Source of the DNA: Clostridia bacterium
GTDB lineage: Bacteria; Bacillota; Clostridia; UMGS1883
Direction of reading: 5' to 3'
Assembly (NCBI GenBank): GCA_017472685.1
Contig: JAFUOO010000004.1
Location: 158,903-222,902, forward strand
DNA length: 64,000 nt
Positions 4,107 through 28,240 of the stretch are shown here, in pieces (position 1 is the first letter of the stretch; the number at the start of each line of letters is the position of its first letter). Under the pieces are notes generated by a model that was not told the DNA's origin, ran no database searches, and worked only from the letters and a program-made list of their open reading frames with translations. The position numbers and the translations under genes were made by a program.

Positions 4107-4182
4107 GCTGCCTTAGCTCAGCAGGCAGAGCACTTCCTTGGTAAGGAAGAGGTCGGCAGTTCGAATCTGCTAGGCAGCTCCA
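4107..4182 (+). tRNA. tRNA-Thr, anticodon GGT.
   Basis: Cloverleaf with 7-bp acceptor GCTGCCT/AGGCAGC, D-arm GCTCAGCAGGCAGAGC and anticodon loop TTGGTAA. T-arm is GGTCGGCAGTTCGAATCTGC. CCA is encoded. Confidence 0.85.
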
Positions 4183-4190
4183 ATTTTATG

Positions 4191-4265
4191 GACCATTAGC
4201 TCAGTTGGTAGAGCACCTGACTCTTAATCAGGGTGTCCCGGGTTCGAGTCCCTGATGGTCCACCA
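4191..4265 (+). tRNA. tRNA-Lys, anticodon CTT.
   Basis: Acceptor GGACCAT/ATGGTCC, D-arm GCTCAGTTGGTAGAGC, anticodon stem CCTGA/TCAGG with loop CTCTTAA. T-arm is GGGTTCGAGTCCC. CCA is encoded. Confidence 0.85.
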
Positions 4266-4680
4266 AAAAAAGGACAAGTTTCGAAAGGAACTTGTTCTTT
4301 TTTACTTATTACTTATTCACTCTTCACTATTCCCAAAATGTTTTTTTGTTGTCCCTTCTGGGCTACGCTCCGACGGGCTCAGCCATCGCCTTCATAAGGC
4401 TCGGCTTCACCTCGCAGGGACTCCTCGCTAAAAACAGTCCACCGGACTGTTTTCTTAACGCTCAGACTGATGGTCCACCAAAAAAAAAGACAAGTTTCGA
4501 AAGGAACTTGTTCTTTTTTACTTATTACTTATTCACTCTTCACTATTCCCTAAATGTTTTTTTTGTCCCTCCTGCGCTACGCTCCGACGGGCTCAGCCAT
4601 CGCCTTCATAAGGCTCGGCTTCACCTCGCAGGGACTCCTCGTTAAAACGACTTACTGTAAAGTAGGTCGTTTTTCTTAAT
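4252..4680 (+). repeat. Two tandem copies of a roughly 215-bp unit (4252-4466 and 4467-4680). Each begins with the 14-nt tRNA-Lys 3' end ctgatggtccacca.
   Basis: The two units are near-identical. Each has a terminator-like hairpin (gacaagtt-tcgaaagg-aacttgtc plus a T-run), an AT-rich stretch, and a GC-rich block of about 70 nt (ggctacgctccgacgggctcagccatcgccttcataaggctcggcttcacctcgcagggactcc). The 3' ends diverge but both end in a hairpin plus T-run. Confidence 0.8.
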
Positions 4681-5897: not shown

Positions 5898-6575
5898 TTA
5901 AACGTAAAACTCTTCTAACGTATTTAAACAGATGCAACCAAGTGTATAGCCATATATTGCGCCACAATCTATGGCTATATGATTGTTTTTTGAGTATATC
6001 CTGCCATGATAGTTTTTATCAATTGTGAAAGTAGGAGTATGACCTGTGACCAGTATTTTGTCATCAAAATAAGCTTTTTGATAGTTGCATCTGCCACATA
6101 TAATATCTTCAGTGCTGTAATCGCTTAATTTTTTATCCTGAGAAAAATTGGAAAGGCCGGCATGAACAAGAACAAATTCTTTTTCTTCAAGCTTTATGAT
6201 TTCATATAAAGAAAAGGTTTCTAAGTAGTCTAAAATTCGTTTTCTTTTGGAGTAGTTCTGAAGGATAAAGTCTTTTTTAGTAGCATTTCCACCGTTGACC
6301 ATCCATTCCTGCCATAGCTTCATAGTTGTATGGTCCAAATTCTCTTCAGCATTTAGCTTTGTTAAAACAGGGAGCGCCATTAGTTCATGATTTCCGCGAA
6401 GTGGAATGATGTTGGGTCGAGTCATCATATCTAATAATATTTTAATGCCCCCTTCGCCTCGATCTATTACATCACCCAAGATATACAGCTTGTCGTTACA
6501 ATTTAAGTTGATTTTTTCAAGCATTGTCCTGTATTCGTCATAACAACCATGCAAGTCGGACATCACATATATCAT
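5898..6575 (-). CDS. Calcineurin-like metallophosphatase, PPP-family Ser/Thr phosphatase or ApaH-like.
   Basis: Motifs DLHG, GDVIDRG and GNHE are present. It is the last gene of the minus-strand operon. Confidence 0.75.
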   Translation of the reverse strand: MIYVMSDLHGCYDEYRTMLEKINLNCNDKLYILGDVIDRGEGGIKILLDMMTRPNIIPLRGNHELMALPVLTKLNAEENLDHTTMKLWQEWMVNGGNATKKDFILQNYSKRKRILDYLETFSLYEIIKLEEKEFVLVHAGLSNFSQDKKLSDYSTEDIICGRCNYQKAYFDDKILVTGHTPTFTIDKNYHGRIYSKNNHIAIDCGAIYGYTLGCICLNTLEEFYV

Positions 6576-6590
6576 CTTTGTATACTACCT

Positions 6591-6911
6591 TTATAACTTC
6601 CTTCTTTTTATTTCCTTATGAGTGGCTTCATGAAGCATAACAACGTCAGAATAACTATGGCAACCATAATCAACATTTTTGCAAATGTTGGTTGCGTAAC
6701 AGGCATTGAACTTTTCTGCAGTTAAATCGCGTAAGAAAAGAGTGGTTGTCAGATCCATGAACATTTTATCTAAATCTTCGTTGCTCATATTAGGCAGACC
6801 GGATAAGAATGTGTCTACAGTGGTTTTGTTTATAGGTGTTTCAGTTTTTTTGCGCGATAAGAAAAAAACTATAGCCACTGCAATAAGAATTATAATTATA
6901 AAAGTAGTCAT
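6591..6911 (-). CDS. Small membrane protein, single N-terminal TM helix.
   Basis: ACGGAGGA RBS. The first roughly 20 residues are hydrophobic (TTFIIIILIAVAIVFFL). It is tightly packed within the operon. Confidence 0.4.
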   Translation of the reverse strand: MTTFIIIILIAVAIVFFLSRKKTETPINKTTVDTFLSGLPNMSNEDLDKMFMDLTTTLFLRDLTAEKFNACYATNICKNVDYGCHSYSDVVMLHEATHKEIKRRKL

Positions 6912-6963
6912 ATTTAATCCTCCGTTATCAAAATGCAGATTTTAAAAAATGTAAAGTCGTAAA

Positions 6964-7152
6964 TTATTCCTTTTCGTAATAAAAACAACCGTTTCTGTCA
7001 CTGGGTTTATTATAACCCCCGTAATCTCCCTCGCAACGAACTCTACCATCCTTATCTCTGTCGCGATAGTTTGCGTATATACAATCTGAACAATTGCCTT
7101 CAAAATGCCCCATAGGGAGTTCGATTCTTTCAATTTTTGTTGTGTTTGTCAT
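6964..7152 (-). CDS. Small Cys-containing protein of 62 aa, possibly a Zn-binding ribbon.
   Basis: Strong GGAGG RBS 8 nt upstream of the ATG at 7152. It contains CxxC (GNCSDC) plus two further Cys (RCEG...NGCFYY). The longer ORF in the track starts with a non-ATG codon. Confidence 0.4.
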   Translation of the reverse strand: MTNTTKIERIELPMGHFEGNCSDCIYANYRDRDKDGRVRCEGDYGGYNKPSDRNGCFYYEKE

Positions 7153-7175
7153 AATAAATACCTCCGTTTTGTTTG

Positions 7176-7604
7176 TTAAATAATTTCTAAAGCGTCTTGT
7201 GTAAGTTGGATGTCCAAATCTGCCCTGATTGCTTTGTAGCATATTAACTCTCGGTTCGGAAGAACAAATATAGGAAAATATAGTTCTGTTATACTATCGG
7301 GCATTGCATGCATAATATTGATTATGTATTCTTTATCGGCAGCAGATGGCGTTTTAATACCAAAAAAGTGTGAATGAAAAACTCCTTTAAAATGCTTCCC
7401 GTTTGATTGCCAATTTGATATACATGTGTTAAGGAATGTTACATTTGGAGAATAGGCACAAGTGTATGTCGTTTCCGATGGAATATCTAACACGATATCT
7501 GTAATGACATCTCCATCATTACTTCCTAATATGCCACCTGTTTCAGGGGGACTGGCACGAATTAAAGAGTTAAGATGATTGTACGCAACAGTTGAAATTT
7601 TCAT
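7176..7604 (-). CDS. JAB/MPN (JAMM) metalloprotease-domain protein.
   Basis: Complete JAMM motif: a Glu upstream (PPETGGILG) and H-x-H-x7-S-x2-D (HSHFFGIKTPSAAD). AAGGAGG RBS precedes the ATG at 7604. The track start at 7610 is TTG. Confidence 0.65.
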   Translation of the reverse strand: MKISTVAYNHLNSLIRASPPETGGILGSNDGDVITDIVLDIPSETTYTCAYSPNVTFLNTCISNWQSNGKHFKGVFHSHFFGIKTPSAADKEYIINIMHAMPDSITELYFPIFVLPNRELICYKAIRADLDIQLTQDALEII

Positions 7605-7777
7605 ATTCAATTATCCTCCTTGAAAAAAATGACAGCTCGTATTGAGTACATCTTTATTATACACATGATAAATATATGAGATTTTGGGGTGAAAGAAATA
7701 TGAGAGTGTTTATGAACTGCCTCTTACGATGTAACGTTGAAATTGTTTCTAAGAGGCAGTTCATTGAAACCGATCGC

Positions 7778-8746
7778 TTATCTGTTAGGGAGATAGTCGT
7801 AAGGATTTAAGGTGGGATTATTTATATTTCCATAACTCTTTTGACTATTACGAACTTCGTAATGAAGGTGAGGACCTGTACTATTGCCTGTAGACCCCAC
7901 AGTTCCTATCTGCTGACCTGCTGTTACATAATCACCTGCTTTGACACTGTAGCTATTGAGATGAGCGTAATATATATATACGGTTTTACTGTTAACGTTA
8001 CATTTAATAATGACATGTTTGCCATAGCTAGTCGTCAATGTTCTGGCAGTGTCCACAACTCCGCTGTATGTTGCGTAAACAGGAGTACCTTTAGAAGCGG
8101 AAATATCAGTGCCACTATGATACTTTCCGGAACTGTTATAACGAGGCCAATTCTTCTGATCTGTGCCACCATTGCCGCCAACAGGCCATACTTTTGTTTT
8201 GCTTGAGTTATTTGATGATGAATTGTTATTAGAGAGGTCTTCTGCAAAGGCTAATTTGTAGCCACGCTTGTTTGATTTTGCTTCATATATAGTATTGTAG
8301 TACTTACCTGACAGAACATATACTTTATCGCCGACACAATAGTATCCTGTTTTGCCGCCGCCGTTGTACTTATATGTTGTAACCTTCTTGTTTGCAGTGA
8401 AGGATGAAGAAGGAGAAATATTACCACCAAGCAAGTCGCTTGTACGAATGTAGCCTTCTCTGTGGGAGTTGCCTACGGGATAGGAAAGGTAGATGTATTT
8501 AGAAGTTATTTTATAGATGTAGCAAATATCACCTTTCTCTATATAGGCATTGTATTCTTTTGACGGACTGCTTGTACCTCTGGTATTGGTATTAGAAGAA
8601 GTATAAACGTTTAATTTTTTTACGGCAGTAAATTCGCAGTAGTTGCTTTTAGATAATGATGGGTAACTTGCGGCAGATGCACTTATACTAAGAAGAGAGA
8701 ACGCCATAATGATAGTTAATACAATTGAAATTATTCTTTTTGTCAT
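7778..8746 (-). CDS. Secreted SH3-like plus M23 (lysostaphin-like) peptidase. Paralog of 30764-31768.
   Basis: Signal peptide (MTKRIISIVLTIIMAFSLLSISASA) and two SH3-like modules. The M23 catalytic signature is HxxxD ... HLHYE. There is a low-complexity Ser/Asn linker. Confidence 0.7.
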   Translation of the reverse strand: MTKRIISIVLTIIMAFSLLSISASAASYPSLSKSNYCEFTAVKKLNVYTSSNTNTRGTSSPSKEYNAYIEKGDICYIYKITSKYIYLSYPVGNSHREGYIRTSDLLGGNISPSSSFTANKKVTTYKYNGGGKTGYYCVGDKVYVLSGKYYNTIYEAKSNKRGYKLAFAEDLSNNNSSSNNSSKTKVWPVGGNGGTDQKNWPRYNSSGKYHSGTDISASKGTPVYATYSGVVDTARTLTTSYGKHVIIKCNVNSKTVYIYYAHLNSYSVKAGDYVTAGQQIGTVGSTGNSTGPHLHYEVRNSQKSYGNINNPTLNPYDYLPNR

Positions 8747-9055
8747 AATTGTTAATCCTTTCTGTTTTAAATATTTATATTGAGACTGTAAAAGGAGTTC
8801 AGCAACACCTCCTTTAATAAAAGTTTTAAGAATTGATTCAAGAACTGTCATATTTTATACCTGACTTGAATAATAACCTTAACTTAATTAATGTTTTTGA
8901 CTGAGTAAATAAATGTGTTGGAACTTTGTTCATAATGAACCTCCTTAAGACTTAATGTTTCAATGTCAGTTGACACTTATATATATACCACGGGATGAAA
9001 AATAGAAAAAATGGGGGTGATAATTTGGTAGAGGTGTATTCAAAGAAGAACTTAA

Positions 9056-10069
9056 TTATATTCTGAAACCTATTTCGCGGTTTTCCGCAGATAGTTTGGT
9101 TGGAAGTTCTGCTTTAACAAATCCGGCATTAATCGAAATTGTTTGTGCACCTAAAGCCAACATATAAATAGCCCTGCGGAATATATTATCAGCAAGCTTT
9201 TCGACATCTCTCACTCCGGGTTCCGTACAAGCTTCACAGATTAACTTAATCGCTGATTCATAAAAAACTATTTCTGATTTCTCGACTTTATATTTCGAAT
9301 AAAGTTTTGGAATAATATAATTTTTTAAAATAAGATATTTTTCTTTTTTTGTATAGCCTTGTATATGTATTACATCTAATCGATCGCGGAGAATGGGATT
9401 TACCTCATTGATGTCGTTTGCGGTTAGGATAAATGTTATATTGGAAACGTCTAACGGGATAGCTAAAAATTGATCTATAAATGCGGTGTTTGTGCTATCA
9501 AAAAGTGAAAGGAGAGCCATTTGAGGACTTCGCTCATTCTTTTCCATTTTGTCCACTTCATCTAAACAGATTACGGCAGAAAAACTTCCGGAGCGCTGTA
9601 TAGCATCTGCTATATAACCTTGATTTGCAGCTTTCCATGTGGGATTGCTTCCCAAAAGCTCCCATTGAGCGGTGGTGCCTTGAAGTGGTACTTTATAAAA
9701 GGGTTCGTTGAGAACCTCGGCTATAATTTCGCAGATTGTGGTTTTGCCGGTGCCTGCAGGTCCTGTTAATAATATGCCTTTGCCGGACTTGCCGGTGCGT
9801 TCACGAACTGCCAACAATTGAAGAATTTTTGTTTTGGTTTCGTTCATGCCGTGATGCTGGGAGTTAAGCATTTCCTGTGCTTTTTGGTAGTCAATTTTAG
9901 TGTGTTCTTTTCCTATACTTGACCATGGAAGGCGTTTAATTGCTTCACGTTGTTCGGTGGTTAATACGTTGGATTTCCATATTTTATATGCGGCGGGCGA
10001 CATGTTTTTCTCCAATGTATCTTTCTTTTCGTCCAATGCTTCAAAAGCGCGTTCTATTTTTTCATCCAT
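9056..10069 (-). CDS. Lon-family AAA+ ATPase module without a protease domain.
   Basis: Walker A GPAGTGKT, Walker B CLDEVDK. A Lon-like sensor region (ILRDRLDVIHIQGYTKKEK) resembles the Lon PLLDRMEVI..GYTEEEK segment. The protein stops after the ATPase module. AAGGAG RBS precedes the ATG at 10069. Confidence 0.6.
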   Translation of the reverse strand: MDEKIERAFEALDEKKDTLEKNMSPAAYKIWKSNVLTTEQREAIKRLPWSSIGKEHTKIDYQKAQEMLNSQHHGMNETKTKILQLLAVRERTGKSGKGILLTGPAGTGKTTICEIIAEVLNEPFYKVPLQGTTAQWELLGSNPTWKAANQGYIADAIQRSGSFSAVICLDEVDKMEKNERSPQMALLSLFDSTNTAFIDQFLAIPLDVSNITFILTANDINEVNPILRDRLDVIHIQGYTKKEKYLILKNYIIPKLYSKYKVEKSEIVFYESAIKLICEACTEPGVRDVEKLADNIFRRAIYMLALGAQTISINAGFVKAELPTKLSAENREIGFRI

Positions 10070-10276
10070 ATTCAACACTCCTTAAAAATTAATTTGACTC
10101 TCCGCCTTACACCGATATAAATATCATACTGTAACGAGTTAAAATTTGGGGAGGGAAAGAAATGAGAGTTTATATGACAATAAGGTTAATGTAAAGGGCA
10201 AAACTTGACTTTATTTGTCATTTTTGAGATAATAGAAGCAAATGCAAAAGCTGTGTCAGAGGGGAGTGGCAAAATT

Positions 10277-12622
10277 ATGGAAATAGATGTATTTATAAGT
10301 TACAGTTCTAAAGAATTCAACAAAGCATTGTTGATAAAAGAAGCATTGTCGGAAAATGACATTTCAGTATGGATGGCTCCAGAGTCCATACCTATAGGGT
10401 CAAACTATACAAAGGAAATTCCTGTTGCAATTAAAAACTGTAAAATTTTTTTACTCATATTGTCACAAAATGCACAAAATTCTATATGGGTACCAGCAGA
10501 AGTTGAAAATGCATATAAAAATGAGAAACTTATTTTCCCATTTATAATAGAAGACTGTCCGTTAACAGAACAATTTGATTTTCTGTTGTCGATGAGTCAA
10601 AAAATAGAGGCAGCGCAGCCACCGATAGAACATAGAATAAGTGAACTCGTTGAAAAAGTTTTGTTGCATTTAGGTAGAAAACAAATAATCGATAAAACAA
10701 ATACAGGGAAAACCGAATATCAGCTGTCCACAATGAAAATTTATGCAGATAAAAACTTCAAAGGAAGAGATGCCGAGCTTGATATTATCCATAAAAATCT
10801 GATGTCAGATAAAAATAAGTTTTTTATTGTCGGAATGGGTGGATGCGGAAAGAGCGAGTTGGCAAACAGATACTGTGAGAAACATTCGAATGATTATGAA
10901 AATATCATAAAGATTACATACAGCGGTTCTTTGAAGGAATCTATTGCAAATGATAGTCCTTTGAATATTTGTGGGATTGTGCGCAATGAAAATTTGGATA
11001 AGAGCGTCGATGAATATTTTGAATACAAGCTTAATGTGTTAAAAAATATAACTGATGAAAGAACTCTGCTGGTTATCGATAATTTTGATGTATCGGAAGA
11101 TGAGAAGCTTGATGAACTGTGTAGCGGTAGATTTGCAATACTTTTCACAACTAGAAACAGGGTAATAAATAATAGATTTGAACAATTGTTATTGGATGAA
11201 GTCAAACTTGATACAAATGAACAATTTGAATTGTTTAAGGATTTTTATCAGATAGAATTAGAACAAGATGAGATTGAAATAATAATGGAAATCTTAACAT
11301 TGTTGGATGGGCACATTTTAAGTATAAGATTGGTTGCATCTACGATGAATTCTAATTGTATTGAACCTGATGAAATGCTCGATATTTTGAAAAATGTAGG
11401 CGCAAGTAAACAATCAGATGTTGTGTATTCTCGAATAAATAAATTGATGCAGTTATCGCAACTTTCAGAGGAAGAATTGTATTTGCTAAAAAATCTTTCT
11501 CTTGTTCCGCTGTCGGGAATCAAGAAAAAGACTTTTATTGAGTGGTGCGGAAAAGAAGATTTTGAAACAATAAATGGATTGATACAAAAAAGCTGGGTTA
11601 TTCGTGACAATAAGGATGTAATTCATTTGCATCCCATAATTTCCGATTTAGCATTTGAAGAATTAAGTAACAATTTTGGTCTTTGTGATAACTTCTTGCA
11701 TGCCTTGACAGAAAATTGTGAAGAAGCACATAAGTTAAACTATAAAAATAAACAGTGGTTAATTGAAACGACTAATTATTTATGTGATAAGTTTCGAAAT
11801 AATTCAGAATTGTGCCAGAAGATGCTAATGTCTAAAGCGCGTATGCTGAATCATTTGTCACGTTATGGAGAATCTATAGCTTTATATGAATCGATTCTCA
11901 GGTATAGGATTGATAGAGAAACCAAAAGATTGATTTGCGCGCGATTAGCGCACTTGTACTGTTTAAGTGGTTTCCCTGAGAAAGCATTAGAGAATGTGGA
12001 AACTTGTATTAGTGAATTTTTCTGCATAGATGTAGAAAAAATGACACCTGAAGAGCTATACATATATAAAGGAGTAATAACCCGACGTGTTGAAGCAAAT
12101 AGGCATTTGGGCAATTACGACATTGCAATATCAGATGCTCGAAAAGTTTTGGAGGTGTATTTGAAGGGCATCGATAATGAGTTGAATCGTAGTATACTAT
12201 GGGGAAAATATCATTTAGCAAGAGCACTGTATATGAGAGGATTGCCCCTGGATATAGAAGAAAGCGAAAAGCACATTTGCGAGGCAATAGAATTATGCGA
12301 GAGCGAAAAATCCTATTGGGATAAAGATTTTTGCATAGAATTACTAGCGCAGATACAGATGAAACAGGGAAAATATGAGCAAGCTATAGAAAATATGAAG
12401 CTTGCATATGAAAGTATAACAAATTTTTCCGGGAAAATTCATGTAGGTGTTGCAGTAAACCGTGTTTTCTTAGGTAATATATACCGCACCATGGGAAATG
12501 AAACCGAAGCAGTAAAATGTTACAATGAAGCAATCGAGATATTTCATAAATGCGGAACATTCAAGCTTGAAGATAATGCGAGATGCATACTTAATAGTGG
12601 AAAAATTGGATATGTAAGTTAA
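10277..12622 (+). CDS. TIR-STAND protein: N-terminal TIR, central P-loop NTPase (NB-ARC-like), C-terminal TPR-like repeats.
   Basis: TIR (DVFISYSSKE ... LLILSQN ... S.WV..E), P-loop GMGGCGKS, Walker B LLVIDNFD, and a C-terminal helical repeat region. The ATG at 10277 is preferred over the upstream in-frame start. Confidence 0.7.
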   Translation: MEIDVFISYSSKEFNKALLIKEALSENDISVWMAPESIPIGSNYTKEIPVAIKNCKIFLLILSQNAQNSIWVPAEVENAYKNEKLIFPFIIEDCPLTEQFDFLLSMSQKIEAAQPPIEHRISELVEKVLLHLGRKQIIDKTNTGKTEYQLSTMKIYADKNFKGRDAELDIIHKNLMSDKNKFFIVGMGGCGKSELANRYCEKHSNDYENIIKITYSGSLKESIANDSPLNICGIVRNENLDKSVDEYFEYKLNVLKNITDERTLLVIDNFDVSEDEKLDELCSGRFAILFTTRNRVINNRFEQLLLDEVKLDTNEQFELFKDFYQIELEQDEIEIIMEILTLLDGHILSIRLVASTMNSNCIEPDEMLDILKNVGASKQSDVVYSRINKLMQLSQLSEEELYLLKNLSLVPLSGIKKKTFIEWCGKEDFETINGLIQKSWVIRDNKDVIHLHPIISDLAFEELSNNFGLCDNFLHALTENCEEAHKLNYKNKQWLIETTNYLCDKFRNNSELCQKMLMSKARMLNHLSRYGESIALYESILRYRIDRETKRLICARLAHLYCLSGFPEKALENVETCISEFFCIDVEKMTPEELYIYKGVITRRVEANRHLGNYDIAISDARKVLEVYLKGIDNELNRSILWGKYHLARALYMRGLPLDIEESEKHICEAIELCESEKSYWDKDFCIELLAQIQMKQGKYEQAIENMKLAYESITNFSGKIHVGVAVNRVFLGNIYRTMGNETEAVKCYNEAIEIFHKCGTFKLEDNARCILNSGKIGYVS

Positions 12623-12625
12623 AAA

Positions 12626-12659
12626 ACATCACGTCTGATAAAAGACGTGATGTTTTTTT
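12626..12659 (+). terminator. Rho-independent terminator after the TIR-STAND gene.
   Basis: Perfect hairpin acatcacgtct-gataaa-agacgtgatgt followed by T7. Confidence 0.65.
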
Positions 12660-12976: not shown

Positions 12977-13582
12977 ATGAGCGGAATAAGAATTAAAGAG
13001 GAAAAGTATGTATTTATAAGCTATCATTCAAAATATTACATGGAAGCTTTTGCAATAAAAGAGCTGCTACAATGTAAGCAAATTCCTTGCTGGATAGTTC
13101 CTTACGATCTTCCTGATGGGTACTTATATGAGTGGATTATCAATGAAAATGTTGATAATTGTACTTGCTTTTTATTGTTGGAGGACGATACAGAAGATGG
13201 GCTTATAAACCGAGAAAGAGAACGAGCTATCTCATGTGGTAAAAGCATACTTAATGTTAAGCTACATGATTTTGTATTTGAACCATATTTAAAGTTTAAT
13301 CTGAAGGCAAGTTATGTGGCTCCCGGAAAAAGAATAGAACAAAATTTGTCAAAAACGCAAGAATTACTGGACACATTAATGGATATTACAGGAATTGAAT
13401 ATTCAGAGCCAAAGAGTGCACAACAAATTTTAGCGGAAATCGGGGCAGAACTGGAAGAAGAATTTGCAAAGTTTATCAAGGAGGATGAAGAGAATCCACC
13501 TACAATAATTGATAAAATAAAAAATTTTTTTGCAAGTATTTTCTGTTTGTTTGAAACTTGTGAGTATGAAGAAGATAAGTAA
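12977..13582 (+). CDS. Small stand-alone TIR-like domain protein.
   Basis: AAAAAGGAGA RBS. Shows the VFISYHSK ... W..P ... FLLLEDD pattern typical of bacterial TIR folds. Confidence 0.45.
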   Translation: MSGIRIKEEKYVFISYHSKYYMEAFAIKELLQCKQIPCWIVPYDLPDGYLYEWIINENVDNCTCFLLLEDDTEDGLINRERERAISCGKSILNVKLHDFVFEPYLKFNLKASYVAPGKRIEQNLSKTQELLDTLMDITGIEYSEPKSAQQILAEIGAELEEEFAKFIKEDEENPPTIIDKIKNFFASIFCLFETCEYEEDK

Positions 13583-16779: not shown

Positions 16780-16969
16780 AGTTTGGCGCTGTAGATTTTT
16801 CAGGTCTGCTAAGGGTGATGGAAAGTGAGGGGGAGATTGTAGCATTCCTTTAACCGTATTCTCAAATAAGGAATTTGATTTGTATTGTTTGAGGCAGAAA
16901 GAACTTGATTCAGAAATTTATAAATTAACATCAACAGATGATGAAAATTAATTGTGGGGGATTAATACA

Positions 16970-17683
16970 ATGAAATTAAACGAGTGCGCAGAATTCATTA
17001 AAGCAGAAATTGACAAGGCGACAGCGCTATTGAAATCGGGTAAGCAATTACAGTGTAAAAAAGCATTTGGAATATTACATAATATTGCACAAATAAACAA
17101 GGAGGAGTTTTCGAAAAACACAAAAGCGGTAGTTGATTATGCAGATTGTTTTTATAACGGAAAGGGGGTAGCCCAGAACTTAGAAAAGGCATTTGAATGG
17201 TACGCTATTGCTGCAGAGAAAAATTTTGCTGTAGCCCTGAGGAAACGAGGAATCTGCTATTTTTATGGTAAAGGGTGCGAAAAGAACTACGATTTAGCAA
17301 CAGCAGATTTTACACAGGCAGTGGATGAAGGCGATATTTTAGCAAATTTGTACTTAGCAGTTTGTTTTGATTATGGCATGGGAGTAAAGCAAGACTATGA
17401 AGAAGCCTTGAAATATTATCAGGCTGCAGCGAAGAAGGGATATATAACCGCTAAAAGAAGGTTGGGTGATTATTATTTAAAAGGTATCGCATCAGAGATT
17501 AATGAAGAAAAAGCTATTGAACTGTACCATGAATGCATAGCACATGGCGATCCGGAGGCAATGCTTAGATTGGCAAATTGTTATTATGAAGGGCAAGGGG
17601 TTACTAAAAACAGCATTAAGGGCTCTTGTTATGATTTGCGAGCCTCGGGAGAAAAGAAACTGCCTATGGCTACAAAAATTTAA
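16970..17683 (+). CDS. Sel1-like (TPR-like) repeat protein.
   Basis: Repeated A.EWY..AA..G...A.......Y..G.GV modules. GGGGG RBS precedes the ATG at 16970. The track start at 16952 is TTG. Confidence 0.55.
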   Translation: MKLNECAEFIKAEIDKATALLKSGKQLQCKKAFGILHNIAQINKEEFSKNTKAVVDYADCFYNGKGVAQNLEKAFEWYAIAAEKNFAVALRKRGICYFYGKGCEKNYDLATADFTQAVDEGDILANLYLAVCFDYGMGVKQDYEEALKYYQAAAKKGYITAKRRLGDYYLKGIASEINEEKAIELYHECIAHGDPEAMLRLANCYYEGQGVTKNSIKGSCYDLRASGEKKLPMATKI

Positions 17684-19970: not shown

Positions 19971-20194
19971 AATATCACCTCTAAAGCTTAAAATCGTAAC
20001 TTAAGTATATCATATCATTTTGACTAGTACAAGAAAAAATCCCCCTGCACCAGCTTGCAGGGAGATAAAGAAAGGAAGATTCAATAGGATAATAACATAT
20101 AAGAGGGAATTTAAAATTGGGGGTATGATTTTTTTACACCCCCTAAAAGTATATAAGAAAAATGATATACAATTAAGGTAAGAAAAAATGAGGA

Positions 20195-20767
20195 GTGAAG
20201 ACAATGGACAAGATTTGGAGCGAAGAGAGAATCCGTAATGTTATGAAGGAATTAGACAAAAAAACCGGGCTGAAGGGCGCAATGTTGCCGATAATATTTA
20301 CAAAAAGTCGAGGAACCATAGGTTACTTTTCTGTTGTAGGAGGAAAAAGTAACCGATTTGCATTTTCAGATTACTACTATCAAGATCCCGATTGGCCCGA
20401 AGAGATGGCAATTGAAATGATTAAGCATGAATATGCGCATTACATGGACTACGAAACTTACGGAAAAGCGGGACACGGTCCTACTTGGAAGATTTGTTGC
20501 GGTAAACTTGGGATTGCTCCGCTCAGGTTGTATAGCGAAAACGGAGCAAATTACTACATAAATAAGCATAAGTTGAATGAAGCAAAGAGCGAAAAGCTCG
20601 ACCGATATGATAGCGGCGTTTGTATAGAGCATCCTAAATATGGCAAAGGGGTGATAAAAGAAATAGTTGGAGCCGGAGCGAAAAGATTGGCTAAGGTTGA
20701 ATTTGCGGAAGCGGTAGAGAAGTTATTGTCTTTGTCATGGATTGATGAAAAGTGTAAAACTTGCTGA
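20195..20767 (+). CDS. SprT-like zinc metallopeptidase-domain protein.
   Basis: HExxH (MIKHEYAHY) with a downstream G.HG..W motif. Followed by its own terminator. Confidence 0.5.
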   Translation: MKTMDKIWSEERIRNVMKELDKKTGLKGAMLPIIFTKSRGTIGYFSVVGGKSNRFAFSDYYYQDPDWPEEMAIEMIKHEYAHYMDYETYGKAGHGPTWKICCGKLGIAPLRLYSENGANYYINKHKLNEAKSEKLDRYDSGVCIEHPKYGKGVIKEIVGAGAKRLAKVEFAEAVEKLLSLSWIDEKCKTC

Positions 20768-20785
20768 ATTCAAAAGATGTACTAC

Positions 20786-20816
20786 GAAAACACGAAGCGA
20801 TGCGCTTCGTGTTTTC
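20786..20816 (+). terminator. Rho-independent terminator.
   Basis: Hairpin gaaaacacgaagcg-atg-cgcttcgtgttttc. Confidence 0.55.
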
Positions 20817-20899
20817 ATAGTATAAATTATTATTGAAATAAGTGTCGAATTGTGGCACAATATATGTATAAATATTTATAGATTGACGGAGGAATGAAA

Positions 20900-23167
20900 A
20901 TGAGTATAAGTTATACTAAGTTTACCGAAGTAGCAGAAAACAGAATGAAAAGTTTAAAAAACAAATTTAGGTTGCCTCAAGAAGTTGCAATAGAAAGGTT
21001 TAAAAATATAGCGAAAGATAAAGGGAAATCTAATTTTTATGGCGACCTTTACGAGTTAATGAAAGGGTGTGGCTACGGTGAGGTTGATTTTAGAGGGAAA
21101 ACATTTAATGAAGTTAATGAGTTGCTAAAAAAATTAAAGACAAAAGCAGAAACCATTACTATGATATTAGACGAATTATATAACATATATTCAAAACATC
21201 AAAGACAAGGAGAATATATGGAGCGAATCGTTAGAAAATTAGGAGATGAATCGTTCGAAAAAGAAAGCATTAGGGTTGCGATTTTAAAGCAATTTGTTAA
21301 ATATTTGCAGGAAGACATGAAATCCATTCACGATGGTGTATCAAGTGTAATAAGGTACATAAAGCGTGATGATAAAAAATGTAAAACCATTGAAGATGTC
21401 ATAAAGAAAATAGATGAAAGTATTTTTGACAACATAAGCAATAACCATACTGATAAATCATCGGAAGAAAAAGGTTTATCGAATGAGGGGAAAGTTTTTT
21501 TAAAAACAATTGATGATTTGTCAAAGTGTGTTTTCAGAGGTCAAGGTGCTACGCGTGAAGCTATGTATACATTTGCTTTTGCATATGGCTTAACGTATTA
21601 TGAAGATTCTCAAGAAATTGATTATAATAAGTATAGAGATATAGATAAGGTTTTCGTAGATACTTTTAATGATAATTTGTTTAGATATATTGGAGAACAT
21701 CGAAACAGAGAGAATAATGCAATACCTACAGGCGAAATGGTAAATTTTAAAAATTTTGCAGAAGTTATATGCATATACTATTTATCAAAAAAAGATGAAG
21801 AAATCAGTCGTTATCAAAGATACGTCGGAGCTATGGATTGTATTGAAAAATGCAAACAGAACTCTATCGGCATAAAAAGTGAAGGTCGTACAACGGAAAT
21901 ATTTAGACTTAATTATTTTGAAAATGTTGCAAAAATAAATAATGATGACGATCTGGTTGATTATATTATACATAACTACTATGTGCCGGAAAAAATTAAG
22001 CACAGTGGGTTTAAAACGGTAGCGATAGATACAAAATTAATAGAAACTGTAACAGGAGAAGCGGTGAATGAAACTGCGAGAGTGGCTATTGTGAACAAAT
22101 TTATTGAAAATAAATTTGTTGGAGACGGATCTGTTACCGGAGTGACAACCTTTTTGAAAAAGGCAAAGGGCTTGGGAATTAGTGATATAACTGATGAGAG
22201 CCTTAATGAATATTGGGAATCAAAAATGATTAATCCAAAAAAAGATAGAAAGCTAATTGGAATCGCAAATCACTTAATTGAAGGATTATTTGACAATGAA
22301 AGTATAGCTCGTGAAAGCTTATTCAAGTTTGCATTTGTTTTTGATATGAAGCTCTATGAAGACGAAACAGAAACAGGTTACGATAAAAATAGAGACATTG
22401 AGAAGCTGCTACTCATTCCTTTTTTAGGAGAGGGCATAAATTATGAAAAGAAATTAGATACTGTTTGTGCTTACTACCTGCGCAAAGATGGAATTGAACC
22501 CGAGGGGAAGACGAAAACTGTAATTGGGGAAAAAATGAAAAGAGTGAAAGCAGCTCTTGAAATGAAAGGAAATGGAGAAGGAAAAATTGTTAGCGGGGAC
22601 AAAAAAAACTATTTCTGGAATTGTGCTGTGAATATGGAAGAAGAAGCTTTTCAAAAATATGTTGCAGAAAATTTTGAAGATGAAAAAGAAAGTAATAACT
22701 TTAACGATTTCTACACGGAGTCCAATCAAATTACTGCATTTAACATATATAAGTCAATTGTTAGCGAAATACAAAAAATGACAAGTGAAGATGAAATGGA
22801 TATCACCTTAGAAATGCAGGACGATGTAGAAATTATCATAGATGAATTTAATAAGACAAAATATTCAAAAGATGACAATTTCATGAAACTATTGCTTGCG
22901 TTGATAAAAATGGTGACTCCTGACAAAAACGTTAATTATAAAAACATGACCAGAAGTAAACTGATTTCATTAGAGTATTATAAAATGAAACGTGATCTTG
23001 ACAATACAGCAAATTTTGAGCAAACGTATGATGAAATTTTAGATTATATCAACATGGACTTGATAGATGCGAGGTATAATCCTCTCGATACAAGAAGTAT
23101 GTATGATTTGTTCGTTGTTTTTCTTGTTTACATACAAGTTGTGTTAATGAACGCCCCCAAAAATTAA
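20900..23167 (+). CDS. Large hypothetical protein of about 755 aa, Lys/Glu-rich, no recognisable domain. First gene of the kinase cassette.
   Basis: Long uninterrupted ORF with a GGAGG RBS. Co-directional and tightly spaced with the downstream genes. Confidence 0.5.
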   Translation: MSISYTKFTEVAENRMKSLKNKFRLPQEVAIERFKNIAKDKGKSNFYGDLYELMKGCGYGEVDFRGKTFNEVNELLKKLKTKAETITMILDELYNIYSKHQRQGEYMERIVRKLGDESFEKESIRVAILKQFVKYLQEDMKSIHDGVSSVIRYIKRDDKKCKTIEDVIKKIDESIFDNISNNHTDKSSEEKGLSNEGKVFLKTIDDLSKCVFRGQGATREAMYTFAFAYGLTYYEDSQEIDYNKYRDIDKVFVDTFNDNLFRYIGEHRNRENNAIPTGEMVNFKNFAEVICIYYLSKKDEEISRYQRYVGAMDCIEKCKQNSIGIKSEGRTTEIFRLNYFENVAKINNDDDLVDYIIHNYYVPEKIKHSGFKTVAIDTKLIETVTGEAVNETARVAIVNKFIENKFVGDGSVTGVTTFLKKAKGLGISDITDESLNEYWESKMINPKKDRKLIGIANHLIEGLFDNESIARESLFKFAFVFDMKLYEDETETGYDKNRDIEKLLLIPFLGEGINYEKKLDTVCAYYLRKDGIEPEGKTKTVIGEKMKRVKAALEMKGNGEGKIVSGDKKNYFWNCAVNMEEEAFQKYVAENFEDEKESNNFNDFYTESNQITAFNIYKSIVSEIQKMTSEDEMDITLEMQDDVEIIIDEFNKTKYSKDDNFMKLLLALIKMVTPDKNVNYKNMTRSKLISLEYYKMKRDLDNTANFEQTYDEILDYINMDLIDARYNPLDTRSMYDLFVVFLVYIQVVLMNAPKN

Positions 23168-23214: not shown

Positions 23215-23868
23215 TTGATGCGAATAAAAAAATTTACTAAGGTCGGAAATTACAATAGTTTGAGAGGGGTAGAAAATCAGGATTATATTTGCGTAAAGGA
23301 AAACAAAAGATTTCTTGTCGTGGCACTGGCAGACGGTGCAACAAGCTGTGTTAAAGGTGCAGCTGGCGCAAGAATAGCATGTGAAGCAGCTTCTGGGATG
23401 TTAATAAAAAGCGATAAGTGGTTTGATTTTGAGAAGGAAAAAGTGGCATACTTAATTCTTGAAGAGGTTTTGTTTCAAACAAAAAAAGAAGCGGATAAGA
23501 ATAATGAGCCATTAGAAGCTTATGCAAGCACGCTGGTAATAACTCTTTTTGATAAAAAGAAAAACAGATTACTTGTTTTTAATTTAGGTGATGGTGCAGT
23601 ATTTCTATCATTTCAAAACGACATAAAATATAATCCGGTTGTTTCACCGAAAAGATTCGAAGGGCAACCGTCGCTGATTACTTGCCTGGATTCTTATAAA
23701 GATGCGCAAGTAGTTGTATTAAATGAATTCGACGGGAAAATATTTATGTGCAGTGATGGTGTATATGAAATTCTCTTCAAAAAAGGTATTACTATAGCTG
23801 AGTTTATAAAAGAACCTGAGAAATGGGATCTTGAAGATGACGGCAGTTTTTTATTTTACGAAACATAG
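23215..23868 (+). CDS. PP2C-like (PPM-fold) phosphatase-domain protein, degenerate.
   Basis: PPM-like motifs: ALADGATS..GAAGARIA, STLVITLFD, NLGDGAVF, CSDGVYE. Lies 18 nt upstream of the kinase gene. Confidence 0.5.
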   Translation: MMRIKKFTKVGNYNSLRGVENQDYICVKENKRFLVVALADGATSCVKGAAGARIACEAASGMLIKSDKWFDFEKEKVAYLILEEVLFQTKKEADKNNEPLEAYASTLVITLFDKKKNRLLVFNLGDGAVFLSFQNDIKYNPVVSPKRFEGQPSLITCLDSYKDAQVVVLNEFDGKIFMCSDGVYEILFKKGITIAEFIKEPEKWDLEDDGSFLFYET

Positions 23869-23885
23869 ATAATGAGGTGTTATAT

Positions 23886-26800
23886 ATGAGACAGGTTTTG
23901 TCAACCAATTGCATTATAAATTTAAGGCATGTGTTGTCCGGAGGAACGGAAAAGTTTAAAATAAAATCCGTGGTAGGAAAAGGTGGCGCCTGTATTTGCT
24001 ATAGGGTAATTCGTGGAAACAGAGAAGGATTGTTAAAAGAGTTTTACCCTGAGGATGTGGGAATAACTCAAAATTATAACATGTTGGAGAGAGACAAAAA
24101 ACACCAGTTAATAGCAGTTGAAGAAGCGTTTGCAGAACGCTTTTCGATTATGAGACAAGAATTTATTGACGGCTATAACTTGTTGGAAAAAGCAAAAAAG
24201 GGTAAGAGAGCGAAGGCTCTGGCAAATTATATTCCCAAGTATGAGATATTTGAAGGGCTGCCTGAAAATTCAACTGTGTATATATGGATGGAAGAGACCG
24301 TGGGAGTGAATTTTGAACAATACTTACAGTGGGTATGGAAAAATGCTGAGGTAAATAGCGCTCTAAAGGTTCATAATATTTTATGCACCATAAACACTAT
24401 CGCTACAGGTGTGTGCGGAATGCACATAAACGGATTGAATCATAGAGACATAAAGCCAGAAAATTTTCTGGTTGAAAAAGATGCAGTGGAAGAACTTAAT
24501 CCTTACCATGTGTGTATGTTTGATATTAACAGTTTCACTTATGGTTCATCGGCAAAATACATTGTGGGCACAAAAGGTTATATGGCACCTGAAGTTGCTT
24601 TTGGTAAGGCCCGTTACTATAGTGACATATATTCTCTAGGTGCGATGTTATTCCATGCTGTAATTGGTGAAAACGCGCTTTATAACGATGAGCAATATGA
24701 TGTAATTGAGCGTTTGGTTTCAGAATCAAAACTAATATCTAAAATTAAAGATGTATATTTAGAAACATACATCACGGAAATTTTGAAAAAGAGTTTAAAA
24801 AAAGAACACACAAAACGATACAAGCAGACAGAAGATTTTATAAGAGATATAAAAAAGGCCATTGCCCGTCTTTTGCCATACACTGAATCGGGAAAGCTTG
24901 GTCCGGGTAAGAGATTGAAAATTGTGGAACAAAACAGACCGATTGACAGTATTCCTGTGTTTCAGGATTTGCTTTATAAAAAGCCTGTATATGAGTATTA
25001 CGATAACAATAATAATGAAATTAACGTTGCTGTTGTCGGTGGCGGCGTTTATGCACAGGCTTTTATGGATGTTGTATTGCAAACTTTACAAATTAAGGGA
25101 AAAACGCTTAATGTTTATGTGTATTCAAAAGATGCCAATTTTGATAAAGGCATTTATTTGAAAGCACGACCTGATATAGGCAGATTTTTTGATATTGATG
25201 ATAAGAATGTGAGCGATGACTCGTATGGAAGAATACGCTTTATAGAAAAAACTTTTAGCGAAAAACACACTGAGTTCCCGGAAATTATTAAAGCAGAGCC
25301 GAGCTATGTTTTTGTTTCTTTGGGCGGCGACAAAGTGAATAAAGCTGTGGCGAAAGCACTTGCAAACAAATTTTCGGAAGAAAACAAAAACGCTTTAATT
25401 AATTTTGTTTGGACAGGGGAGGAAATTAGAGTAAAAAACAATAAATTAAATCCCGTTTATGTCAGTCAAAGAGTAAAATATTCTGATATAGATGCAAACC
25501 TTGCCAACATGGCATTTAATACCCATCTTGTTTGGAACGATTCTTTCTCGAAAGATTATGGTGAGTTATACAAAGAGTTCAGAGAGTCTTATAACTATAA
25601 GTCATCCATCGCATATGCATTATCAATTCCATACAAATTACACTCAATGGGTTTAACAGATGAAAAAGGAAATTATGATATTGAGTGCATTAATTCCATG
25701 TTAAGTGATGAAAAAGTATTGAGAGAACTTTCGTGCTACGAACATAGACGTTGGGTCACCGAAATGATTTGCAAAGGATGGACAGCGCCGGTTGATGCTA
25801 ATGGCAGAGTTGAAACGAAATTGTGCCTTGAATTTTTATCAAATAAAAATAAAAAAGATAAAATACATCTCTGTATTGCAAAAGGAAGTACAAGCAGTTG
25901 TCCTGACGAGAAGGAATGGGATGAATTTAAAGGTAAATTGGATGATTTGGATCGCGTGAGCATAGAGCTTTATGGACATTATAATAAAGAGGCTAAGAAG
26001 TTCAAAGCAAAATATTTAAGCGGAGAATTTACTGCGTTGAAAACATTGAAGCAGAGTTTATCAGGCGTTTCGGAATTTTCAAAATTGTTGGCAGAATATG
26101 AGTTTTCGATAGACGCCATTGTGAAAAATTGCAGTAAAATGCACGCGTTGAAATTTGAATCATTACATTCAAGAATTGTTGAAAAAATAGAAAAATCTTC
26201 GAAAATAGTAAAACCTGATGCTGTTTTAAAAGAACTTAATTCTGTATTAGAAAGCATTAACCCTTCAGTGTACAGTATAAAAAGGACTAATTATAAACGA
26301 ATTGATGATGACCTTGTGAAACGTATTCCGTTTATAATTACAAATCGCCCAAGACCGCAAATAACTATGGTATTTAATGATGGGCGATATGGAAACTATG
26401 CGAATGAAGAAGTTTTAAAAAATGTAGCATCTGCTGTTGCCATAGTGCCAAAGCACATTACGTATTTATATTATTGCAACAACTTAACAAACATTAAAAA
26501 GCTCGCTTCTGCAATTAAAGGGGTTTTGAATTTCTTTGATAAAAAAAGCATGGCAAACACAATTGATTTTGTCTTTGCATGTAATAGCAGTTTTAATGCA
26601 GAACTGAAGAGTAAAATGGAAGTTTTGAAAAAAGAGTATGCAAGAATCAAAAACATTTACTACCACGAGTACATAAGCGAAAAAGCTGCTGTTTTACTTT
26701 TTGCAAATAAGTATTGCAATGATATTATAGAGGGGACAAGTTTGCCCTTTGATACAGCGGTTAGTAACGGGTATTTCACAGAACAGATGCGCCAAAAGCA

Positions 26801-27956: not shown

Positions 27957-27958
27957 AT

Positions 27959-28240
27959 ATGTACGAACCAAAACCAATTGATACAAGTGATATTATTTTA
28001 TCTGATGAATTATTGGCGTTAACTGAGAAACTTGCTGAAAACACACATGACGTGTGGGCTGTGGGCAGAATAAGCCAGGGATGGAAATATGGGGAAAAGC
28101 GTGATGATTTAAAGAAGGAAACTCCGTGTTTGGTGCCCTATGTAGAACTTCCGGAAAGTGAAAAAGAGTATGACAGAAATACAGCACTGGAGACGCTGAA
28201 GTTAATAGTTAAGTTGGGGTATAGTATAGAAAAAATATAA
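27959..28240 (+). CDS. RyR (ryanodine-receptor-type) domain protein.
   Basis: LAENTHDVWAVGRISQGWKYGEKRDD..K..PCLVPYVELPESEKEYDR matches the bacterial RyR-domain consensus. The start is 2 nt after the kinase stop. Confidence 0.6.
   Translation: MYEPKPIDTSDIILSDELLALTEKLAENTHDVWAVGRISQGWKYGEKRDDLKKETPCLVPYVELPESEKEYDRNTALETLKLIVKLGYSIEKI

Follow-up and report, generated by a model that had tools for sequence, protein, structure and literature searches.

Do two genes that stand back to back in a defence island work as one system, or does each stand alone? The question is raised by a locus in a 64,000-nucleotide stretch of DNA from a Clostridia bacterium (GenBank assembly GCA_017472685.1, contig JAFUOO010000004.1, positions 158,903 to 222,902), the whole of which we call the window. 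Here, a gene for a Lon-like AAA+ ATPase without a protease domain is divergent from a gene encoding a TIR-NB-ARC-TPR protein of the STAND kind (TIR-STAND). A first-pass annotation of the sequence proposed that the ATPase may assist or regulate the STAND protein or, alternatively, be a separate one-gene system. The second proposal fits better, given the neighbourhoods of diverged relatives. Our verdict is that TIR-STAND is a single-gene sensor and the Lon-like protein an unrelated orphan unfoldase, both residing in a tRNA-adjacent defence island. We lean, with modest confidence, towards two independent modules placed back to back in a variable, low-GC, TIR-rich island, the Lon-like protein being an intact motor with a tail that probably tethers it to a partner.

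The gene models confirm the divergent arrangement, and the common intergenic region, first put at about 200 bp, measures 207 bp (10070-10276). The mechanical open reading frame (ORF) of the Lon-like gene spans 9056..10078 on the minus strand and encodes 340 aa. The ATG at 10069, which has an AAGGAG ribosome-binding site upstream, is the likely start and gives 337 aa. This model is that of the public metagenome-assembled genome (MAG) annotation (MBQ8540093.1, 'AAA family ATPase [Clostridia bacterium]'). For TIR-STAND, the mechanical ORF begins at TTG 10205, which is the −35 hexamer of a sigma-70-like promoter. Translation really begins at ATG 10277, and the product has 781 aa as in MBQ8540094.1. 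The locus had been delimited as 9056-12659. Its left end is correct; the right end is not, as the TIR-STAND gene stops at 12622. Coordinates of all features are listed in Table 1.

Only one relative has the two genes adjacent. This locus, L001, encodes proteins 91% (Lon-like) and 73% (STAND) identical to those of the window and repeats the window arrangement. Little can be read from this synteny, L001 being closely related to the window. Furthermore, the rates of evolution of the two genes differ greatly: the STAND proteins of the window and L001 are 73% identical, whereas the Lon-like proteins, and the M23 peptidase and JAB domain proteins encoded downstream of the Lon-like gene, are 85-92% identical. 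Lon-like homologues of 61% (L002) or 51% (L003/L004) identity have no STAND or TIR-STAND neighbour. At L002, an RdRP/YonO-like gene (RdRP, RNA-dependent RNA polymerase) lies upstream, several genes without assignment and an M23-Ricin-SH3 gene lie downstream, and a MobL relaxase is encoded. At L003/L004, two NADAR-DarT1 domain genes are upstream and a 322-aa gene is downstream. The STAND homologues tell the same story. No Lon-like neighbour is present within 1-7 kb of those with 56, 39, 36 and 33% identity (L110, L106, L107 and L108; within 7 kb for the last three), and the second STAND paralogue in L001 has no Lon-like neighbour. The L110 gene is flanked by genes for an ABC-transporter ATPase and an FHA protein. 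In L106, L107 and L108, another TIR-(NB-ARC)-TPR copy adjoins the STAND gene or follows at a distance of one gene. Further neighbours are a TIR-Sel1 gene, an OmpA block and a TrwB/TraG coupling protein at L106, and a RyR-domain gene at L108. An accessory or regulatory role for the ATPase is thus not borne out, adjacency being confined to L001 and absent at L002, L003/L004, L106, L107, L108 and L110. Co-occurrence, the lack of which the first-pass annotation had named as refuting its proposal, is essentially absent beyond the closest relative, the L001 pair being the exception.

What, then, is the Lon-like protein? Lon is the textbook AAA+ motor fused to its own protease. The window protein is a Lon-family AAA+ module that fails two defining features of Lon proteases. 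Thus, TIGR00763 (NCBIfam lon) matches profile positions 300-567 of 795 with 213 bits, far under the family cut-off of 608 bits, and Pfam finds AAA and Lon_lid. Pfam has no match to the LON N-domain (PF02190), consistent with the TIGR00763 match beginning at position 300. There is likewise no Pfam match to Lon_C; the GPSAG motif is absent and the chain stops 27 residues past the lid. Hence, the first-pass annotation was right that the Lon ATPase and sensor region is kept (the peptide ILRDRLDVIHIQGYTKKEK is present) and that the Ser-Lys protease domain is missing, no remnant of which is found in the DNA. In sequence comparisons with the PDB, the best matches are the ATPase modules of LONP1 and bacterial LonA (E ~1e-44). 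The AlphaFold2 model has a mean predicted local distance difference test score (pLDDT) of 90 and a predicted template modelling score (pTM) of 0.84, and its best Foldseek matches are again LONP1/LonA ATPase modules, with a template modelling score (TM) of ~0.8. In a 94-sequence Lon alignment, the Walker A columns G103, G106, G108 and K109 are invariant, and sensor-1 N218, Arg finger R230 and sensor-2 R287 are intact at invariant or nearly invariant columns. Column 145 is a nearly invariant Tyr in Lon relatives and a Trp in 4/4 members of the close family.

The protein therefore resembles LonA (E. coli Lon, human LONP1) along the whole ATPase module, with ~33-35% identity, and has the same pre-AAA helical bundle, Walker A/B motifs, pore loop, Arg finger, sensor-2 and Lon lid. 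Unlike LonA, it has no N-terminal substrate-binding domain, no Ser-Lys protease and Trp in place of the pore-loop Tyr. It also has a [KR]-x-IGF tail, carried by 0/196 canonical Lons. The best PADLOC match is DolB of the Dodola system, which is also a short AAA+ protein without a protease. This match is weak (E = 9.6e-10, 36 bits) compared with the 213 bits for Lon. The remote homologue P0186 scores 53 bits against the same model. Because a canonical-type Lon also matches the DolB model, the match may be generic. The Dodola partner DolA had no PADLOC match among the 19 island proteins scanned. Literature searches found no published description of protease-less Lon ATPases with IGF tails or with the HbYX tails described below.

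The Lon-like protein is a rare protease-less Lon derivative under strong purifying selection. Compared with the L001 orthologue, non-synonymous divergence (dN) is 0.041 and synonymous divergence (dS) is 0.556, giving a dN/dS of 0.073. Among 5.8 billion proteins, the family forms only four clusters at 90% identity (that of the window and three others), and it has one representative in an exhaustive 50%-clustered library. GTDB species representatives contain no close relatives, only canonical Lons with 31-39% identity. No close relatives were found in JGI metagenomes or in IMG/VR, the latter having one giant-virus homologue, and PLSDB plasmids and INPHARED phages returned only canonical lon at ~33%. 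A profile built from diverse IGF-tail members was swamped by canonical Lons.

The C-terminal tail is the most informative feature of the protein. Residues I333, G334 and F335 are invariant in 11 homologues, down to 30% identity, and the linker before them varies in length and sequence. The homologues with 91, 61 and 51% identity end in EIGFRI, SIGFCI and EIGFRI. In the AlphaFold2 model, residues 321-337 have pLDDT values of 54-67. We measured tail frequency in 340 Lon relatives, made up of 144 proteins without the catalytic GPSAG serine motif and 196 canonical Lons. An [ILV]GF tripeptide is present among the final 14 residues of 22/144 of the former and 0/196 of the latter (Fisher p = 2e-9), against a background rate of 0.4% per 14-residue window. 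The motif has Lys or Arg before it and 0-9 residues after it, this number being no more than 5 in all but one case. Because the number varies, the motif does not need to stand at a set distance from a free carboxylate.

A neighbour-joining tree places the window protein in a clade of 12, nine of which have IGF tails. Three clade-mates (P0110, P0154 and P0158) keep a Lon_C-like domain in which both Ser and Lys are replaced. In P0110 and P0158, the IGF follows this dead protease domain and is at, or at most 2 residues from, the C-terminus; in P0154 it is ~20 residues from the end. Hence, to judge from these sequences, catalytic death likely came first and loss of the protease domain second, with the tail retained throughout. 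The N-termini of IGF-tail proteins vary: some have none, others have Sel1 repeats, domains without assignment or a second AAA module. This fits interchangeable heads, which would bind substrates or adaptors, on a constant motor-plus-tail. Flexible loops of ClpX-type unfoldases carry an [ILV]-G-[FL] motif that docks in grooves of ClpP (bioRxiv 10.1101/638692). Since the tail bears this ClpP-docking tripeptide of ClpX and ClpA, a partner may be supplied in trans, ClpP being the top candidate. By analogy, the IGF tail is suggested to tether the Lon-like hexamer to such a partner. A separate giant-virus clade of protease-less Lon ATPases, which ends in HbYX, points the same way. Like ClpX and ClpA, the Lon-like protein would be an AAA+ ring protein that lacks a protease and bears this tripeptide on a flexible element, on the face where the substrate exits. 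Unlike them, it belongs to the Lon clade of AAA+ proteins, not the Clp clade; the tripeptide is on a C-terminal tail and not an internal loop; no ClpP gene is linked to the Lon-like gene; and docking to ClpP is putative.

The second protein of the locus is easier to place. The TIR-NB-ARC-TPR domain calls of the first-pass annotation are supported by Pfam TIR_2, NB-ARC and TPR_12 (Table 1). Within NB-ARC we identified G-R164, Walker A GMGGCGKS (186-193), Walker B D268, TTR293 and GH346, and the winged helix that follows has an MHD-like LH452P; hence P-loop, TTR (RNBS-B), GxP-like and MHD-like motifs are all present. Across 58 homologues, E75 (at least 90% conserved), R164, the P-loop (186-193), D268, R293, H346 and H452-P453 are invariant or nearly invariant. 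The AlphaFold2 model has a pLDDT of 90, and residues 467-774 are all-helical with pLDDT > 90. The best Foldseek match is a STAND-TPR protein (6mfv), followed by RPP1, Apaf-1, NRC2/4 and CED-4. Avs3 and Avs5 structures match less well than these NB-ARC proteins.

The label 'Avs-like' is consequently correct for architecture and not for family. Bacterial Avs/TIR-STAND proteins combine in a single polypeptide an effector at the N-terminus, a STAND NTPase and, at the C-terminus, a sensor (PMC13581612), and the window protein does the same, with a TPR-like sensor and in a defence island. In contrast, no PADLOC v2 model for Avs or TIR-NLR families matched at E <= 0.01, in a scan that covered families older than the newer Avs families (PMC13581612), and the NB-ARC is of the Apaf-1/plant-NLR type. 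Plant TIR-NLRs (RPP1, ROQ1), Apaf-1 and CED-4 offer the closer comparison: they have the same domain order (TIR, NB-ARC, repeat sensor) and motif set, and are the top structural matches after the STAND-TPR protein. Unlike them, the window protein is bacterial, has a TPR sensor and not leucine-rich repeats or WD40, and has no helper NLR or EDS1-type partners. We regard it as a new addition to the familiar bacterial TIR-NB-ARC-TPR/NLR-like kind, and ordinary for its class.

Homologues of this type often come with another copy beside them or a few genes off, an arrangement reminiscent of paired plant NLRs (L106:7001-11894, L107:6047-10803, L108:7001-13617 and L001:1566-9862). In the window, the gene after TIR-STAND (12977-13582) encodes a 201-aa TIR-only protein. 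Its TIR is 42% identical over 57 aa to that of TIR-STAND and 37% identical over 83 aa to that of the second STAND of L001. It may be a truncated second STAND copy.

How far do other explanations account for these data? Both terminal LonA domains are missing, as they would be from a decaying lon fragment, and the first-pass annotation had named a pseudogene with a frameshifted remainder as the finding that would undo its proposal. That explanation is effectively refuted, and we give it almost no weight: dN/dS is 0.073 at a dS of 0.56, every ATPase motif is intact, homologues at 91, 61 and 51% identity have the same N- and C-terminal limits, and tblastn detected no remnant of the Lon P-domain or N-domain in the 64-kb window (all matches E > 0.3). 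The intact protein may instead be a stand-alone chaperone or remodeller, its IGF tail a leftover of the Lon linker and first protease strand, kept for folding or hexamer stability. We consider this rather unlikely. In its favour, the tail aligns by eye with canonical D-E-I-G-I-V-R-G-L-A-W-T and no partner gene is conserved beside Lon-like genes. Moreover, a third protease-less class, ending in LPKW/LPTY, is found in an rpsO-pnp-rnj-ftsK housekeeping context, so a bare ATPase module can work alone. However, the tail is predicted to be flexible, its linker varies while I, G and F are invariant to 30% identity, clade-mates with a dead protease domain bear IGF after that domain at their own C-terminus, and none of the 196 canonical Lons has Phe as the third residue.

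Partnerships with neighbouring genes fare no better. Could the Lon-like hexamer be a dedicated chaperone or regulator of TIR-STAND? As variants of this idea, it might reset or disassemble active oligomers, as TRIP13 does for HORMA-CBASS, or its C-terminal peptide might bind the TPR domain. The genes are divergent with a common 207-bp control region, an arrangement kept in L001; a remote IGF-tail homologue is 4.4 kb from a DUF4062-STAND-TPR gene; and another, P0195, is fused to Sel1/TPR-like repeats, which resemble a stand-alone Sel1 protein of the island. Binding of C-terminal peptides is common among TPR domains. There is also precedent in TRIP13/Pch2, an AAA+ remodeller that sets the threshold of the HORMA-CBASS immune effector (PMC7159879). 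Unlike that system, the window has no HORMA or other adaptor, the AAA+ clade differs and the neighbourhood is not conserved. Given the 61 and 51% Lon-like homologues without a STAND neighbour, the four STAND homologues (56-33%) and the L001 paralogue without a Lon-like neighbour, and the very different evolutionary rates, a functional pair is quite improbable. Looking the other way, the Lon-like protein might work with the genes downstream on the same strand (M23, JAB, Cys-rich, membrane and phosphatase) in a cell-envelope or protein-modification module. This we consider very unlikely, even though the block is conserved in L001, a promoter/leader module is common to the Lon-like and JAB genes, and an M23 peptidase is encoded 2.6 kb downstream of the 61% homologue. 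None of the block genes is beside the 51% homologue or the remote IGF-tail members, and the L002 M23 is nearer to the chromosomal PcsB-like gene of the window than to the island M23. Because the island M23 has a signal peptide, it is not a cytosolic partner of the Lon-like protein.

Several observations weigh against the reading with two independent modules and a tethering tail. There are only three independent close-family Lon-like contexts, so the missing co-conservation rests on few loci. The remote IGF-tail protein P0186 (L091; 33-38% identity to the window protein, depending on the alignment) is encoded 4.4 kb from a gene with DUF4062 (TIR-like), P-loop (STAND) and TPR domains. All informative Lon-like loci carry conflict genes linked to NAD or ADP-ribose (TIR or NADAR), so a looser functional tie to TIR systems is possible. 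As to the tail, the profile used to collect relatives included it, giving a slight bias to tail-bearing matches. No partner peptidase is encoded near any family member, and ClpP and a stand-alone Lon_C were sought and not found in the 64-kb window. Finally, [DE]-x-IG is similar to the linker of canonical Lons and to the beginning of their first protease-domain strand (DEIGIVRGLAWT), so the tail may in part be a retained vestige.

With these points in mind, we can outline how the two independent modules would operate. By analogy with Apaf-1, plant TIR-NLRs and bacterial Avs, the TPR superhelix of TIR-STAND would bind a trigger. Nucleotide exchange at NB-ARC and oligomerisation would follow, and the N-terminal TIRs would be gathered into an NAD+-cleaving or signalling assembly. 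The Lon-like protein, expressed from its own promoter, would most likely be a hexameric unfoldase or remodeller. Its [KR]-x-IGF tail would probably tether the motor to a partner in trans, the best candidate being a self-compartmentalised peptidase such as host ClpP. Because the region is a defence or conflict island, clustering alone can explain the juxtaposition of the two genes, and no obligate partnership need be supposed.

Table 1. Features of the locus and its surroundings, in window coordinates.
Feature	Position	Strand	Remarks
Lon-like AAA+ ATPase gene	9056..10069	-	337 aa; helical bundle, AAA+ alpha/beta domain, Lon lid, flexible tail
C-terminal tail, residues 321-337	9059..9109	-	variable charged linker, then conserved terminal R-E-I-G-F-R-I
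IGF tripeptide, residues 333-335	9065-9073	-	within C-terminal tail
Walker B D170-E171 (ICLDEVDK)	9557..9562	-	invariant or nearly invariant alignment columns
Pore-loop-1 aromatic W145 (NPTWK)	9635..9637	-	occupies Lon pore-loop Tyr position
Walker A GPAGTGKT, residues 103-110	9740..9763	-	read from sequence
Divergent intergenic region	10070..10276	.	207 bp
33-nt motif, first copy	10145..10177	-	-10-like TAAACT and CU-rich start of Lon-like leader
33-nt motif, second copy	7683..7715	-	~75 nt upstream of JAB gene start
Sigma-70-like promoter of TIR-STAND	10205..10233	+	TTGACT, 17-nt spacer, GATAAT, upstream TG; 10/12 consensus matches, consensus match only
TIR-NB-ARC-TPR STAND gene	10277..12622	+	781 aa; MBQ8540094.1
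TIR domain, residues 5-96	10289..10564	+	Pfam TIR_2, 1.3e-17
Candidate catalytic Glu E75 (WVPAEV)	10499-10501	+	WxxxE context
NB-ARC domain, residues 166-395	10772..11461	+	Pfam NB-ARC, 2.1e-13
C-terminal TPR superhelix, ~residues 500-781	11774..12619	+	Pfam TPR_12 and related; presumed sensor
Block downstream of Lon-like gene	5898..8851	-	context, membership in unit not established; syntenic only in L001
Secreted M23 peptidase	7778-8851	-	signal peptide
JAB domain protein	7176-7610	-	
NinI-like metallophosphatase	5898-6575	-	
TIR-MORN protein	4875		island
201-aa TIR-only protein	12977		island
750-aa TIR protein	17718	-	island
565-aa TIR protein	28382		island

The intergenic region had been said to carry a copy of a conserved 33-nt motif. 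A copy is indeed present in the spacer. The 64-kb window holds only one other and no further copies, and the two are 76% identical (blastn E = 0.03), each ~75 nt upstream of a minus-strand gene (Lon-like or JAB). When the two window copies and their L001 counterparts (upstream of 10001 and 12445) are set in a four-way alignment, the elements in common are TTACA(T), ~17 nt, TAAAC, a CU-rich leader, AGGAG and TTGAATATG. The motif therefore looks like a duplicated promoter/leader module of the Lon-like and JAB genes, with no relation to TIR-STAND. That both genomes keep it hints at co-regulation of those two genes. We also considered a structured RNA leader or anti-Shine-Dalgarno element and rejected it; the leaders fold no better than shuffled sequences (z +1.35 to -0.53).

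The surroundings of the locus differ sharply from the chromosome. Between ~4.0 and 38 kb of the window, GC content drops from ~46% to 32-37%, starting right after tRNA-Thr(GGT) and tRNA-Lys(CTT) (4107-4265). Rfam found only tRNAs, and PHROGs gave no phage signature in the island. Following the tRNAs, at the GC drop, are two tandem copies of a ~215-bp unit (4265-4433 and 4481-4647, 96-98% identical). They probably mark the insertion site of the island or a duplicated attachment site; no integrase was found. The island encodes at least five TIR proteins. Other products are a Sel1 protein, two secreted M23 peptidases, a CHAP-cohesin protein, a JAB protein, a NinI-like phosphatase, a PP2C phosphatase, a 1359-aa fusion of a PD-T4-6-like kinase to a PD-(D/E)xK nuclease, and a RyR-domain protein. 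On its right side the island borders ordinary chromosomal genes: PitA, CdaA, FtsEX and one that is PcsB-like. The region is a defence or conflict island.

The block downstream of the Lon-like gene (Table 1) also holds a small Cys-rich ORF and a gene for a 106-aa transmembrane protein. Between the Lon-like and M23 genes (~8843-8933, minus strand) there is an ORF of ~30 codons (MNKVPTHLFTQSKTLIK...) with a strong AAGGAGG site, which overlaps the longest possible M23 start. The M23 start is probably the internal Met (MTKRIISIV, 322 aa), as in L001. Further along the island (23215-28240), genes for PP2C, the 1359-aa protein (which joins a PD-T4-6-like Ser/Thr kinase to a nuclease of the Card1/CARF-type PD-(D/E)xK kind) and a 93-aa RyR protein are found together. 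Beside the 61% Lon-like homologue, L002:1419-4639 encodes a RyR protein (72% identical) and a relative of the 1359-aa protein. The set may make up a defence module of its own that is carried in the same islands. L002 also encodes a 1094-aa protein with a eukaryotic-type RdRP domain (PF05183; 5836-9120), akin to the SPbeta prophage's single-subunit RNA polymerase of the YonO type. Because it has a MobL relaxase (20070-21044), the L002 island is on a mobile element.

Some protein families recur beside Lon-like homologues, namely one of 329/322 aa (L002/L003) and one of 288/305 aa (L002/L087). No relatives of either were found in the window, even by unfiltered hidden Markov model searches, and Pfam had no match for nine neighbour proteins of Lon-like homologues. 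Near P0186, L091:420-8248 encodes a PycC-like cyclase and the 1204-aa DUF4062(TIR-like)-P-loop-TPR protein. L091 also has a 582-aa Lon with the protease domain present and the N-domain absent, so two differently truncated Lons are found at one defence-like locus. P0195 (L090:513-1889) is an IGF-tail Lon-like ATPase with N-terminal Sel1 repeats. The stand-alone Sel1 protein of the window (16952-17683), which is also found in L001, is 36-41% identical to the Sel1 segment of P0195 and could be a separately encoded adaptor.

Protease-less Lon proteins of other kinds were also found. The LPKW/LPTY class has ~350-365 aa and 28% identity to the window protein (L098:9779-10873, L095:9821-10879, and also L096, L100-L102 and L105). 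It sits in a conserved housekeeping row of rpsO, PNPase (pnp), the Lon-like ATPase, RNase J (rnj) and FtsK, which suggests a role in this RNA-degradation neighbourhood. Another clade, separate and well defined, has HbYX tails. Hb-Y-X is the classical docking motif for the 20S proteasome. We found ~44 Lon-like ATPases with such tails (among P0011-P0065; roughly 250-1030 aa, most 480-580), and 42/44 fall in this clade. Its members lack the protease, have acidic low-complexity N-termini and end in, for instance, HMYL, SMYI, SLYT or NMYI. At least one of the HbYX genes is on a giant-virus MAG contig (IMG/VR GVMAG, L085:9392-10906). Judging by these tails, HbYX Lon-like ATPases may be virus-encoded proteasome caps.

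These observations together allow a bolder proposal, which we put forward tentatively and regard as unlikely to hold in full. The window protein may represent an undescribed class of Lon-derived 'orphan caps', in which the protease was inactivated and then deleted. Its [KR]-x-IGF tail would dock host ClpP and redirect it to new substrates from mobile defence islands, mirroring giant-virus HbYX Lon ATPases that would cap the host 20S proteasome.

For defence biology, the locus is a caution: divergent adjacency in a defence island is no evidence that two genes form one system. In this case, comparison across genomes sets the Lon-like and TIR-STAND genes apart, and the STAND family is more often beside a second TIR-STAND copy. 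For the Lon-like protein, the conserved docking-type tail offers a potentially interesting hypothesis. If it is true, a protease was discarded and a ClpP-recruiting tripeptide kept, and protease partners would be swappable in evolution; a second example would be the sister viral lineage, with its 20S-docking motif. Mobile elements and viruses would then have, in such proteins, a simple way to hijack the degradation machines of their hosts.

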